A stretch of DNA of 15,227 bases from IMG/VR virus record IMGVR_UViG_2740892422_000006, positions 1 to 15,227 of that record. One strand, 5' to 3'. The translations under genes and the position numbers were made by a program. The DNA comes from a virus. Lineage: Duplodnaviria; Heunggongvirae; Uroviricota; Caudoviricetes. The notes beneath the pieces were generated by a model that worked only from the letters and a program-made list of their open reading frames with translations, ran no database searches and was not told where the DNA came from. Positions 779-6,036 of the stretch are shown here, in pieces (positions within the stretch are counted from its first letter, which is position 1; each line of letters opens with the position of its first letter).

Positions 779-904
779 ATCCTCCATCCCGGGGTCAGAA
801 CAGCAACAGCAGTCAGACACATTGCAATGCTGTTTTTCATATTCAATTACCATCTTTCACTGGGGGAAAAATAAAACAAAGCGATGTCCATGCCATGAAC
901 CACC

Positions 905-921
905 CTTAAGGATTCCTTAAG
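905..921 (+). promoter_or_regulatory. PmrA(BasR)-box-like direct repeat CTTAAG-N5-CTTAAG upstream of the Ais-like gene
   Basis: Two CTTAAG hexamers separated by 5 nt (GATTC), 54 nt upstream of the ATG at 975 and followed by an A/T-rich -10-like stretch (ATAAATAAT). Resembles the PmrA box consensus CTTAAT-N5-CTTAAT as I recall it. Confidence 0.4.
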
Positions 922-974
922 AATTGCCATAAATAATCCTGCATTTTATTTTTCCTCCCAACCGGATAATTCCA

Positions 975-3544: not shown

Positions 3545-3662
3545 TTTAAACCATTTTTAATGCTTAGTAATATAAATACGTCTCTCTGGAGGAGAGAGAT
3601 GCTTATTCTTCTTCATGGACTTTGTCCCGCGGCTTTAATCCGACAGCCGCGCCCTTTTTTCG
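3545..3662 (+). ncRNA. Candidate small plus-strand transcript: sigma70-like promoter, internal hairpin and intrinsic terminator
   Basis: -35 TTTAAA, 17-nt spacer, -10 TAATAT (3580-3585); hairpin TCTCTC-TGGAG-GAGAGA; terminator CGCGGCT-N10-AGCCGCG followed by CCCTTTTTTCG (about 3632-3665). Confidence 0.25.
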
Positions 3663-3695
3663 CCAATATAAACCGGGTTGAACTCATACAAAAAG

Positions 3696-3712
3696 CTCGC
3701 CGAAGCGAGCCT
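3696..3712 (-). terminator. Intrinsic terminator downstream of the tRNA-like gene
   Basis: GCTCGC-CGAA-GCGAGC hairpin, followed on the minus strand by TTTTTGTAT. Confidence 0.45.
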
Positions 3713-3738
3713 GTTAAAAGTATATTTACCGTTACAAA

Positions 3739-3820
3739 TGGACCGTCACCGGGGACTCGAACCCCGCACCACAAAACAACAATACGTGTTATGCACTCTT
3801 ACCCGATGAGTTAGTGACGG
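3739..3820 (-). tRNA. Degenerate tRNA-like gene or tRNA pseudogene (intact acceptor, D and T arms; aberrant anticodon arm)
   Basis: Minus strand reads CCGTCAC-TA-ACTC...GAGT...CGGGG-TTCGAGT-CCCCG-GTGACGG-T-CCA; acceptor and T arms are perfect, but the anticodon arm plus variable region is about 28 nt and does not fold canonically. Confidence 0.4.
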
Positions 3821-3879
3821 TTTTTTGTTCTGTGGGAATCCAGCCTGACGACAGAATTACTGGAACACCTTGCAAAAAA

Positions 3880-3905
3880 AGCCAGCCACCAGAGACTGGC
3901 TGGCA
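3880..3905 (-). terminator. Intrinsic terminator-like hairpin (minus strand)
   Basis: GCCAGCC-N10-GGCTGGC, followed on the minus strand by TTTTTTTG. Confidence 0.35.
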
Positions 3906-4082
3906 AATGACAGAGTTTAAATGATTCATCATACAATCGTCGTTACAGGGGAATCCTGCGGTGCAGCAAGATACAGAAATGTAAGCAAACTAACAATAAG
4001 CAAGCACAGCATATTCGGAATTAGTTATAATTTTAACGATGCAGTGCTTATTCAGCATGCAATTCTGCAAATTACCAAAAAA

Positions 4083-4100
4083 AACCGCCTGCTAAGGCGG
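4083..4100 (-). terminator. Intrinsic terminator-like hairpin (minus strand)
   Basis: ACCGCC-TTAGCA-GGCGGT, followed on the minus strand by a T8 run. Confidence 0.4.
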
Positions 4101-4465
4101 TGGTCAAATCAGTAAGTGCTGAAGAGTATTATTATAATACAAGTGAGGTGTCGGGTGCCTCCCGAAATACCTGACATTCCATCAGATACTGTAGTTTCCC
4201 GGCTAAACTACTTAAACCACCCCGCACATGGAGTTCACCTCATTTTGTGATGTTAACAACATCGGGATAGTGCATAATCAGCCCCTGCCAGGAAATATCA
4301 AAAATCCCACCAATAATGCACTATTCCGATAGCGTCAAAAAACACAGCACCGAAATCATAACTGGTCTCCGTTATAATTCGGGAGCGCGATAAGGGATAT
4401 ACGAGACCTTTTCCCGCGAGAAAAAAAACGCCAGTGCTGAAAAACCTGTACCTCATTTGTTTTGC

Positions 4466-4540
<75 letters not shown>

Positions 4541-4543
4541 ATA

Positions 4544-4619
<76 letters not shown>

Positions 4620-4621
4620 AC

Positions 4622-4698
4622 TGGACCGCCACCGGGGACTCGAACCTCGCACACTCAACTTAAAGGGTTGACGCTCTTTCCTGATGAGCTAGTGGCGG
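4622..4698 (-). tRNA. Atypical tRNA; anticodon loop CCUUUAA (UUU/Lys in canonical register, but C at position 33 and an A-C mismatch in the T stem)
   Basis: Minus strand CCGCCAC-TA-GCTC-ATCAGGAAA-GAGC-G-TCAAC-CCTTTAA-GTTGA-GTGTG-CGAGG-TTCGAGT-CCCCG-GTGGCGG-T-CCA; full cloverleaf, spaced 1-2 nt from neighbouring tRNAs. Confidence 0.5.
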
Positions 4699-4699
4699 T

Positions 4700-4775
4700 T
4701 GGTGGCCCTTGCTGGATTTGAACCAGCGACCTGGCGATTATGAGTCGCTCGCTCTCACCACTGAGCTAAAGGGCC
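4700..4775 (-). tRNA. tRNA-Ile2 (anticodon CAU, lysidine-type; Met identity not excluded from sequence alone)
   Basis: Minus strand GGCCCTTTAGCTCAGTGGTGAGAGCGAGCGACTCATAATCGCCAGGTCGCTGGTTCAAATCCAGCAAGGGCCACCA resembles ileX/ileY-type tRNA as recalled. Confidence 0.7.
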
Positions 4776-4896
4776 GGGCGCAGGATAATAACGTTACAAA
4801 ATCAATGTTGCAAGCATTCAAAAATCACCTGGTTAAAAATCCCCCTTGCTTCCTCCACCAGCGCATTCACCATGTCTATCCGAGATAAGTGGCACA

Positions 4897-4984: not shown

Positions 4985-5674
4985 TCAATCTACTTTTGCA
5001 ACACTTTGCTTTGAAAATGCCGCCTTTTGTTTTGAACGCGTTCTCATTACAAACAATAAAGCCCCACTATCCAGTCGGTAAAAAATGTGTTTCATTGCAA
5101 CCCAGTGACGAGTAAATGTTTTGGACCAGTTTTTAGTTGTCACTCCCGCCAGTAATGCCAGCTCCTGGTATTCATAACCTTCCCCACCAAAAAGTTCTGC
5201 TTTTACTGCCTGCGCCGCCAGCCAGATTAATTTTTTCAGGCGTTCCTGCGTTTTCCCTGCAATTTTTCTGGTACCGGATTGAGTATTAAATTCATTCCAC
5301 GCCCACTGTGTTATCGCGATCTGATATTCCCAACAAATACTCCCGCTGTAACACCACAACAACCAGGCTTTATGATGTTCTTCAAGAGACAGAACAGCCC
5401 GCCGCCACGATGATGTCGAAAACTCAACCGGACTGACCAGAGGAATTGACGTCCCCTTCGCCAGCGATTGCTTTCCCGGAATTGGTGGATTATCCCGCGT
5501 TATCATTTTTCCAGTCACTTCATCGCGGTACCGGATTTTTTTTCGCCTGTAACGCCCTGTATCGAACATGGCATTCTCTTGCCAGGCTTCAAGCTGACCT
5601 TTTGTTGCCCCACTCAAATCAGCGGTGGCGATAATGAGCTGCTCACGCACAAACTGTAAATACTGGTTATTCAT
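4985..5674 (-). CDS. Late-gene antiterminator Q-like protein (QuuQ-like), 229 aa
   Basis: Directly downstream of RusA with ATGA start/stop overlap (ATG at 5674), followed by a tR'-like terminator and the late region; position and size fit Qin quuQ-type Q. Family assigned from context and memory. Confidence 0.55.
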   Translation of the reverse strand: MNNQYLQFVREQLIIATADLSGATKGQLEAWQENAMFDTGRYRRKKIRYRDEVTGKMITRDNPPIPGKQSLAKGTSIPLVSPVEFSTSSWRRAVLSLEEHHKAWLLWCYSGSICWEYQIAITQWAWNEFNTQSGTRKIAGKTQERLKKLIWLAAQAVKAELFGGEGYEYQELALLAGVTTKNWSKTFTRHWVAMKHIFYRLDSGALLFVMRTRSKQKAAFSKQSVAKVD

Positions 5675-6036
5675 GCGCACTCCAGTTCTGTGATTTTTAT
5701 CCCCAGCCGCCCACCAGGAACGAGCTGACCGCGCACAATATTGATTTCATCAAACTGCTCGTCGTCTATAAGTAGTCCGGCATGCGTCAGCGCATCCAGT
5801 GGTGCCTTCAGGATATTGTCCAGGTCGCGGCGGCGCTTATCCGGTGGCTCCGCAATAATCTTTATCGCCAGCCTTCCGGACAGGTTTAATTTCAACCGCT
5901 GCTGGCGAACAATTAGCGCCACATCATGGCGATAACGCTTTCCGGCCTCCGAGATGAAATACGTATTGCCATGACGTCGCCAGTAGGTATTCACCGTCGG
6001 CGGGTAAGGTAAAACAAATTCTATGCGTTCAGTCAT
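5671..6036 (-). CDS. rusA: Holliday junction resolvase RusA
   Basis: 121 aa with PPTVNTYWRRHGNTYFISEAGKRYR and the catalytic acidic cluster PPDKRRRDLDN, as in E. coli RusA (PDRRRRDLDN as recalled). Confidence 0.85.
   Translation of the reverse strand: MTERIEFVLPYPPTVNTYWRRHGNTYFISEAGKRYRHDVALIVRQQRLKLNLSGRLAIKIIAEPPDKRRRDLDNILKAPLDALTHAGLLIDDEQFDEINIVRGQLVPGGRLGIKITELECA

Follow-up and report, generated by a model that had tools for sequence, protein, structure and literature searches.

The stretch of phage DNA analysed here (15,227 nucleotides; hereafter the window) belongs to a lambda-like E. coli prophage, whose late region carries a real 82-nt tRNA-shaped gene at positions 3739-3820. Judged by its sequence, this element belongs to the argN tRNA family of lambdoid phages, as does the 'Lys' tRNA at 4698-4622. 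We tentatively favor the reading that its tRNA body is maintained and that the RNA acts as a non-decoding tRNA mimic, which would engage tRNA-binding factors.

On the minus strand, the tRNA reported by ARAGORN spans 3739-3820, in exact agreement with the original prediction. Read 5′ to 3′ on that strand, the element is CCGUCAC-UA-ACUC-AUCGGGUAA-GAGU-G-CAUAACACGUAUUGUUGUUUUGUGGUG-CGGGG-UUCGAGU-CCCCG-GUGACGG-U-CCA, where CAUAACACGUAUUGUUGUUUUGUGGUG is the 27-nt segment after the single G. Its parts are as follows.

3739-3820, minus strand: 82-nt tRNA-like gene, a derivative of the argN family with a rebuilt anticodon region (ARAGORN and our own covariance model)
3814-3820, minus strand: 5′ strand of the acceptor stem, CCGUCAC, pairing with GUGACGG at 3743-3749 (7/7 Watson-Crick)
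3795-3811, minus strand: D arm, ACUC / AUCGGGUAA / GAGU, with G18G19 (4/4 pairs)
3793-3794, minus strand: 2-nt linker GC before the anticodon-like stem
3776-3792, minus strand: anticodon-like stem-loop, AUAAC / ACGUAUU / GUUGU, with C33, U37 and the 'anticodon' GUA
3767-3775, minus strand: 9-nt G/U-rich variable region, UUUGUGGUG (by comparison with the Arg(UCU) tRNAs L129/L141 and with the sister form L096)
3750-3766, minus strand: T arm, CGGGG / UUCGAGU / CCCCG (5/5 pairs)
3739-3742, minus strand: discriminator U and encoded CCA

The acceptor, D and T stems together contain 16 pairs, every one of them Watson-Crick. This bears out the earlier description of intact acceptor, D and T arms with a perfect CGGGG/CCCCG stem, a discriminator and CCA. 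The core tRNA bases U8, A14, G18G19, T54-psi55-C56 and A58 are present, and the T loop is UUCGAGU. Across eight variants the acceptor stem is 100% paired, with a single change from U-A to U-G. The body has the 7/4/5-bp stems and the core bases of a canonical tRNA, whereas the anticodon region is not canonical, the anticodon is not conserved and the score lies below the Rfam threshold. The D and T stems are 28 nt apart in the element and 23 nt apart in its paralogue (4698-4622).

With the Rfam tRNA model (RF00005), the element did not reach the gathering score of 29 bits. Its top clan match at E<=10 was tmRNA, with 19.4 bits against a threshold of 47, over the acceptor and T-arm part. Since this was the best match in the clan, the tRNA score of the element must be less than 19.4 bits. 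The four neighboring tRNAs of the cluster scored 44-74 bits with the same tRNA model. With a covariance model built for the element class, the element scored 113 bits and the paralogue at 4622-4698 scored 71 bits; the tRNAs of the family scored 60-77 bits, and unrelated tRNAs at most 45 bits. Because of this family relationship, a chance resemblance to tRNA is excluded. The identity of the element as a tmRNA was rejected on the sub-threshold score, and ARAGORN reports no tmRNA. Other Rfam families gave only sub-threshold matches and were rejected as well.

The paralogue at 4622-4698 is annotated as tRNA 'Lys(UUU)'. Outside the D-to-T interval, it is identical to the element at 48 of 55 positions, which agrees with the paralogy proposed earlier. 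Four of the seven differences form two compensatory pairs, namely 4-75 (U-A/C-G) and 10-26 (A-U/G-C). The acceptor stem and the T arm of the element are identical to those of the tRNA-Lys of prophage L002 from a mouse E. coli. Across IMG/VR, the argN scaffold carries the anticodons UCG, UCU and UUU, and the anticodon loops are often irregular. In tRNA anticodon loops U33 is near-universal. In this family, CCUUUAA (C33) is the commonest loop, and CAUUUAA (A33) and the 8-nt loop CUUUUUAU also occur; members with these three loops are common and are annotated as tRNA-Lys.

Several further observations were made on the family. The tRNA-Lys(UUU) at 4622-4698, with the loop CCUUUAA, combines U73 with an A.C mismatch in its T stem and scored only 44 bits with the Rfam tRNA model. 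This form accounts for 67 of the 125 argN-family loci in IMG/VR, more than any other form. It is a candidate for a nuclease-evading tRNA-Lys. The 8-nt loop CUUUUUAU is found in tRNA-Lys genes of prophages from mouse and rodent E. coli (L002 4001-4078, L006 3001-3078 and L172 2501-2577), and a sister copy (L009) has the 7-nt loop CUUUUAU. The 8-nt loop may be a slip in the T-run or a quadruplet-type loop. In several prophages with the element, the 'Lys' tRNA at the second position of the cluster is degenerate (L004 674-750, from UMNK88, and also L057, L073, L098 and L116): G18G19 is lost, the D stem is weakened, and PGAP leaves the gene unannotated. An 89-nt argN derivative at L155 4568-4656 (minus strand) has an extended anticodon stem, CCAGCCU/AGGCUGG (possibly 9 bp), with a loop of about 13 nt. 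This looks like an independent expansion of palindromic character in a sequence that contains Ns. Furthermore, argN-like genes of 77-78 nt in Yersinia phage YeP1 (L158 1501-1578) and in L173-L178 share the AUAAC/GUUGU stem of the element. They carry an extra linker base and the non-U33 loops CAUUUAA, CAUUGCC and CCACAAG, and the annotation of YeP1 itself names its gene 'tRNA-Pseudo-TTG'. The copies in YeP1 and L173-L178 indicate that the argN-like family reaches beyond E. coli.

The window matches a prophage of E. coli RM10740 with 100% identity. In the orientation of the element, RefSeq annotates on the identical sequence DUF968, RusA, antiterminator Q, tRNA-Ile(CAU), and the Lys, Thr and Gly tRNAs. 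These are followed by 1.1 kb without annotation, which holds the element, and then by a TerB-family protein, DUF3927, two holins and an M15 endolysin. This gene order places the element in a lambdoid prophage's late operon, at the site that stx occupies in Stx phages. The features around it are as follows.

4985-5680, minus strand: Q antiterminator gene, the presumed source of read-through (ORF list; RefSeq 'bacteriophage antitermination protein Q')
4785-4813, minus strand: sigma-70-like promoter TTGCAA-17-TATTAT, 9 nt before the first tRNA (consensus match only)
4466-4775, minus strand: tRNA cluster Ile2(CAU), Lys, Thr(UGU), Gly(UCC) (ARAGORN, Rfam and RefSeq)
4622-4698, minus strand: paralogous argN-family tRNA within this cluster
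4084-4465, minus strand: first of two non-coding units that separate tRNA-Gly from the element; it closes with a strong intrinsic terminator
3881-4083, minus strand: second such unit, also ending in a strong intrinsic terminator
3881-3904, minus strand: intrinsic terminator upstream of the element (8-bp stem with 6 G-C pairs, T7 run)
3693-3712, minus strand: intrinsic terminator downstream of the element (scan for hairpins with T-runs)

The element lies 646 nt downstream of the tRNA cluster, which is itself 3′ of Q. Both its isolation from the cluster and its position between intrinsic terminators had been noticed before, and we found the two hairpins with T-runs on the same strand, at 3904-3881 and 3712-3693. 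A 60-nt leader (3821-3880) separates the upstream terminator from the element, and a 26-nt trailer follows at 3713-3738. Strain A10 retains the element with a leader shortened by 40 nt and without the downstream terminator, which a recombination breakpoint has removed. No sigma-70-like promoter was found in the 60-nt leader, and two strong terminators (4101-4084 and 3904-3881) precede the element. Since a promoter lies 5′ of the cluster and the element lies behind two terminators, the cluster tRNAs may be made in the lysogen, whereas the element would not be. The sister form L096 has an equal promoter layout (TTGCAG-17-TATTAT, about 890-925, minus strand).

Other RNAs may be encoded nearby. 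The units at 4084-4465 and 3881-4083 are candidate prophage sRNAs akin to the Pas sRNAs near Q. The first gave weak sub-threshold Rfam matches to STnc100 (27 bits) and GcvB (18 bits), and the second to VqmR and Qrr. Elsewhere in the window, the sok antisense RNA of a hok/sok-type module (7690-7864, minus strand, 112 bits) and DicF (14693-14744, plus strand, 77 bits) were detected; a RelE/ParE-ParD pair is annotated nearby on the identical RefSeq sequence. An 84-codon ORF at 3560-3814 (plus strand) with GGAGG upstream is antisense to the element and spans two terminator hairpins. We treated it as spurious on account of these hairpins and of its lack of annotation on the identical RefSeq sequence.

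The anticodon region had been described as expanded and not folding canonically. This description held in part. The extra linker base, the 9-nt variable region (the canonical relatives carry the 5-nt UGGUG in its place), C33 and U37 are non-canonical, but a stem of canonical size, with 5 bp and a 7-nt loop, is still possible. This stem, AUAAC/GUUGU, can be extended to 6 bp and closes the loop ACGUAUU. It is 100% paired in eight variants (seven of the element and L096), with two pair-preserving changes. The alternative register, with a 7-bp stem and an 8-nt loop, would retain the canonical linker and a 5-nt variable loop. It was rejected, since it is only 85.7% paired, with a U.U mismatch in seven of the eight variants and an A.A mismatch in L096. 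Arm energies computed with ViennaRNA were -2 to -6 kcal/mol in every register; such weak and competing folds do not tell the registers apart.

The triplet in the loop differs among lineages. It is GUA in the window, AUA in four other lineages (L033, L066, L151 and L169) and CAG in L096, and ARAGORN correspondingly names the variants Val(aac), Tyr(ata) or Leu(cag). Among the identity features, the element has U73, C1-G72, G3-C70 (not G3-U70) and U20 (A20 is lost), without a long variable arm. The combination of U73 and C1-G72 without a long variable arm does not suit the identity rules for Tyr or Leu. Because the anticodon is not conserved and the Rfam tRNA threshold is missed, it is very unlikely that the element decodes. 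The RNA is expected to be uncharged, since it has no conserved anticodon and no synthetase identity set, and since C33, U37, the linker and the variable region are altered. Hence, its use by the ribosome is not expected either.

It has nevertheless to be considered whether the element is an unconventional decoder, which would read Tyr codons via GUA or, with the 8-nt-loop register, act as a frameshift or quadruplet reader. In such a case, the odd arm might serve the escape from an anticodon nuclease. The acceptance of the element as a tRNA by ARAGORN and the common non-U33 and 8-nt loops of the family would fit this explanation. In addition, retron-Eco7 PtuAB targets the anticodon GUA (PMC12445682). 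However, the change of the triplet from GUA to AUA in several lineages and to CAG in L096 speaks against a decoder, as do the mismatch with Tyr and Leu identity, the U.U mismatch of the 8-nt-loop register and an Rfam score far under 29 bits. Moreover, U37, C33, a linker of 2 nt and a variable region of 9 nt are not known from working tRNAs. We regard this explanation as highly improbable.

The element is rare and recurrent. It was found in 17 of 5426 complete E. coli genomes (0.3%), mostly of pig and mouse isolates, and 15 of the 17 copies are identical. None of the 17 carrier genomes has it annotated in RefSeq. It is also present in 13 IMG/VR contigs and in one metagenome contig, and no copy was found in the phage GenBank collection. 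Thus, the element is conserved in related prophages, a point on which the original prediction had been made to depend. In all carriers, about 650-730 nt separate the element from the Gly tRNA upstream of it, and the class comprises seven sequence variants. No intact 77-nt ancestor was found at this locus in the 5426 E. coli genomes, and the seven IMG/VR matches to the flank pattern all have the 82-nt form; so the comparison with related prophages failed to yield the ancestor that had been looked for. Gap-pattern scans of genome and metagenome contigs for further expanded variants gave unrelated tRNAs, except for one known variant (L167). A covariance-model search across all 183 loci gave no new expanded class.

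Two related forms share the expansion. The sister form L096 is also 82 nt long with the same 28-nt interval, and lies inside a tRNA cluster, where it replaces the Lys/Arg tRNA. The second form, called P27-type here, has a 28-nt interval as well and lies between ileZ and argO in the Stx2e phage P27, whose GenBank record annotates ileZ and argO alone. It occurs in 1117 of the 5426 complete E. coli genomes and is mostly decayed. About 70 copies have an intact body and receive the PGAP label 'tRNA-OTHER'; in the common form, found in about 1000 genomes and unannotated, the T loop is replaced by GCGGGT. The P27-type loci read were L179 3001-3080, L180, L181-L183, L171 2501-2582 and L157 1588-1668. 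Their 27-nt arm, GACGACACGATAACAGGGTTGTTGGTG, is invariant in the seven variants read although the body decays, a count that megablast seeding may bias. RM10740, the genome that matches the window, also has a P27-type copy, adjoining stx2e. Both L096 and the P27-type occupy the second position of the cluster, whereas the element lies in the late region downstream of Q but outside the cluster. The arms of the three forms have an equal total length, with ACAC at an equal offset. From this agreement, we infer that the three classes descend from one expanded ancestor.

The next question is whether the element is maintained or decaying. Between the element and L096 there are 15 differences, five of them in stems. 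None of the 21 pairs is broken, and one change is a double compensatory change. In simulations of random substitution, all 21 pairs remained unbroken in 0.07-1% of runs (P about 0.001). At the D-stem pair 10-26 (A10-U25), the element class has A-U, whereas L096 and every canonical relative sampled have G-C. Since A-U at this pair is confined to the element class, it was not simply copied from a working relative. Summed over lineages, the element has 12 changes where about 26 would be expected from its flanks of 150 nt on each side, that is, about half. In strain A10, all five changes of the element are in unpaired positions, and the flanks are 16% diverged. On the other hand, variants v2 and v3 have one T-stem mismatch each (pair 56-70 is compensated in v2), and in the L003 lineage, a degraded prophage, the element has more changes than its flanks. 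When changes were counted as events within the element class, 4 of 11 fell in stems and two of these break pairs, which is not a significant departure from neutrality.

These results suggest that the tRNA body of the element is maintained, with the reservation that recombination with working paralogues could yield an equal pattern. The unbroken helices relative to L096 and the halved divergence relative to the flanks argue against plain neutral decay of the body. The original prediction had offered three readings without preference, namely a decaying tRNA, a regulatory RNA and a processing signal. Decay is thereby made less likely for the body of the element, and it does occur in the P27-type relatives. 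In the P27-type, an intact body (L181) is followed by forms with a deletion in the D loop and a T-stem mismatch (P27 and L183), and then by about 1000 genomes with a replaced T loop; the T-stem mismatch is present even in the inducible phage P27. Because the P27-type decays visibly, the expanded arm is compatible with a loss of function.

Accordingly, a neutral relic is the main rival explanation and has a substantial, if smaller, probability. An argN-type tRNA would have been duplicated, and one lesion would have rebuilt the anticodon region of the copy; the product may be transcribed and processed without a role. The perfect body would then result merely from recency or from refreshing by recombination with working paralogues. 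The P27-type series follows such a path. The tRNAs at the second position of the cluster are often degenerate, as in UMNK88 (without G18G19) and in forms with acceptor mismatches. The T-stem mismatches in v2 and v3, the rarity of the element (17/5426) and the near-neutral event count within the class are in line with a relic. Against a relic speak the 15 differences from L096 that break no pair (P about 0.001), a divergence about half that of the flanks, the lack of an intact 77-nt ancestor at the locus in E. coli genomes and IMG/VR, and an A10-U25 pair that is absent from all working relatives sampled. Weighing these points, we modestly prefer a maintained non-decoding tRNA-like RNA over a neutral relic, as a tentative judgement.

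Alternatively, the tRNA shape might serve as a processing handle, at which RNase P and RNase E would be brought in to cleave the long late transcript. Such a cut might part the sRNA-like units from the TerB-holin-endolysin mRNA, or it might free the trailer and terminator as an Hfq-type RNA like 3′ETS-leuZ. The element is isolated, with two terminator-bounded non-coding units on one side and the lysis cassette on the other, and the part that is kept strictly is only the acceptor/T domain, which is what RNase P requires. Over the trailer, there are weak Rfam matches, far under threshold, to the Hfq-binding sRNAs isrB and isrK. In contrast, A10 has kept the element without the trailer terminator and with the shorter leader; thus the trailer and terminator expected of a 3′ETS-type RNA are present in the window and lost in A10. 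Furthermore, L096 and the P27-type lie within tRNA clusters, where the neighbors already supply processing sites, and the D arm, which is dispensable for RNase P, is preserved as well, with a compensatory change. We consider the handle improbable.

The least probable of the explanations considered is that the tRNA body is the scaffold of an sRNA, which would use its exposed G/U-rich stretch UUGUUGUUUUGUGGUG as the seed for C/A-rich sites in mRNAs. GcvB-type seeds are G/U-rich, and the single-stranded segment of the element resembles them in composition. In the late regions of prophages, sRNA genes are known to occur near Q (bioRxiv 10.64898/2026.05.13.724894). However, no site complementary to UUGUUGUUUUGUGGUG was found in the window besides the element itself, the stretch differs in L096 and is missing from the P27-type, and a mature tRNA-like RNA would be without an Hfq-type 3′ end. 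Such a role is very doubtful.

We return to the preferred explanation, a tRNA mimic. The element is a diverged argN-type copy that has kept the full tRNA body and has probably lost a decoding-competent anticodon region. It would be transcribed chiefly in the late phase, by Q-modified polymerase reading through, because it has no promoter of its own and lies behind two terminators, downstream of Q and the cluster. Processing by RNase P and the 3′ trimming enzymes, to be expected from the intact acceptor/T domain, would yield a stable RNA about 82 nt long with CCA at its end. This RNA may accumulate uncharged, as a tRNA mimic that the ribosome does not use. In the most attractive version, the mimic would soak up or occupy a tRNA-cleaving defense nuclease. 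This version is attractive because the siblings in the cluster, Lys(UUU) with its altered loop and Thr(UGU), match known defense targets: AriB of PARIS cleaves tRNA-Lys(UUU), P2 OLD cleaves tRNA-Thr(UGU), and phage tRNAs rescue both (PMC12445682, PMC11464382, PMC10264068). A literature search on phage tRNA decoys and argN variants found nothing.

Taken further, lambdoid prophages may contain a selected class of non-decoding mimics with an argN body and a fast-evolving arm, which would be produced from the late transcript and shield phage growth by occupying or diverting immune nucleases directed at tRNAs. We regard this broader proposal as unlikely. Its targets might be PARIS/AriB, PrrC, OLD, HepS, retron-type effectors or another tRNA-binding factor. 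If it is true, the class would be the RNA decoy counterpart of the known nuclease-resistant replacement tRNAs.

The tRNA genes of phages have recently been reinterpreted as counter-measures to tRNA-cleaving defenses. A tRNA body without an anticodon, if proved to be selected, would extend this idea from replacement to mimicry. If the element is only a relic, it shows how phage tRNA genes die, with the anticodon arm lost first and the body later. Selection of the element would also mean that annotation pipelines overlook a recurrent prophage RNA gene: none of the 17 RefSeq carriers has it annotated, and about a fifth of the complete E. coli genomes contain its P27-type relative without annotation. 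The element is an unannotated phage member of the argN family, of the 'tRNA-OTHER' or pseudo-tRNA kind, and its novelty is modest unless the mimic reading is confirmed.

Among known systems, the nearest is argN of the Stx phages, which lies between Q and stx in the order ileZ-argN-argO. The element shares its scaffold (CCGYCAY-UA-GCUC...GAGC...CGGGG-UUCGAGU-CCYCG-RUGRCGG-U-CCA), C1-G72 and U73, and both genes lie in the late part of lambdoid prophages, downstream of Q. However, argN is a canonical 77-nt tRNA-Arg(UCG) with the loop CUUCGAA, whereas the element is 82 nt long, has C33 and U37 and no conserved anticodon, and is boxed by terminators 646 nt away from the cluster.

The P27-type 'tRNA-OTHER', found in phage P27 and in many non-Stx prophages, resembles the element in its argN body, in the exact 28-nt interval and in the offset of ACAC(G). 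In both, the 5′ strand of the arm is rich in A and C, its 3′ strand is rich in G and U, and the gene lies upstream of TerB-DUF3927 or stx2e. The P27-type differs in the sequence of the arm, for which a 9-bp hairpin with an AGG loop is predicted, and in its location in the cluster rather than alone. It is far commoner and mostly decayed through the replacement of the T loop, and its intact copies are annotated by PGAP, whereas the element is never annotated.

The likeness to tmRNA is confined to the weak alignment at the acceptor and T-arm part. The tag reading frame and the pseudoknots of tmRNA are missing in the element, which is 82 nt long as compared with about 360 nt. Other non-decoding RNAs of tRNA shape are also known. 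Species 1 and 2 of the T4 tRNA cluster (rnaC/rnaD) are stable tRNA-like RNAs that do not decode and whose function is unknown, and the pseudo-tRNA 'tRNA-Other' of Bacillus cereus is a non-decoding regulatory RNA beside real tRNA genes. The element resembles them as a probably non-decoding RNA of tRNA shape; they differ from it in organism and architecture and have no known sequence relationship with it.

The nuclease-resistant phage tRNAs have an altered anticodon arm on a preserved body, like the element. They include the T5 tRNA-Lys against PARIS AriB, a phage tRNA-Thr against P2 OLD, and tRNAs with mutations in the anticodon loop (PMC11464382, PMC12445682, PMC10264068). The cluster mates of the element, Lys(UUU) with an altered loop and Thr(UGU), add to this likeness. 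The literature searched contained no precedent for a phage tRNA acting as a mimic or decoy. The nuclease-resistant tRNAs decode and replace the cleaved host tRNA, whereas the element has no conserved anticodon; therefore, it could act against such nucleases only as a mimic or decoy.
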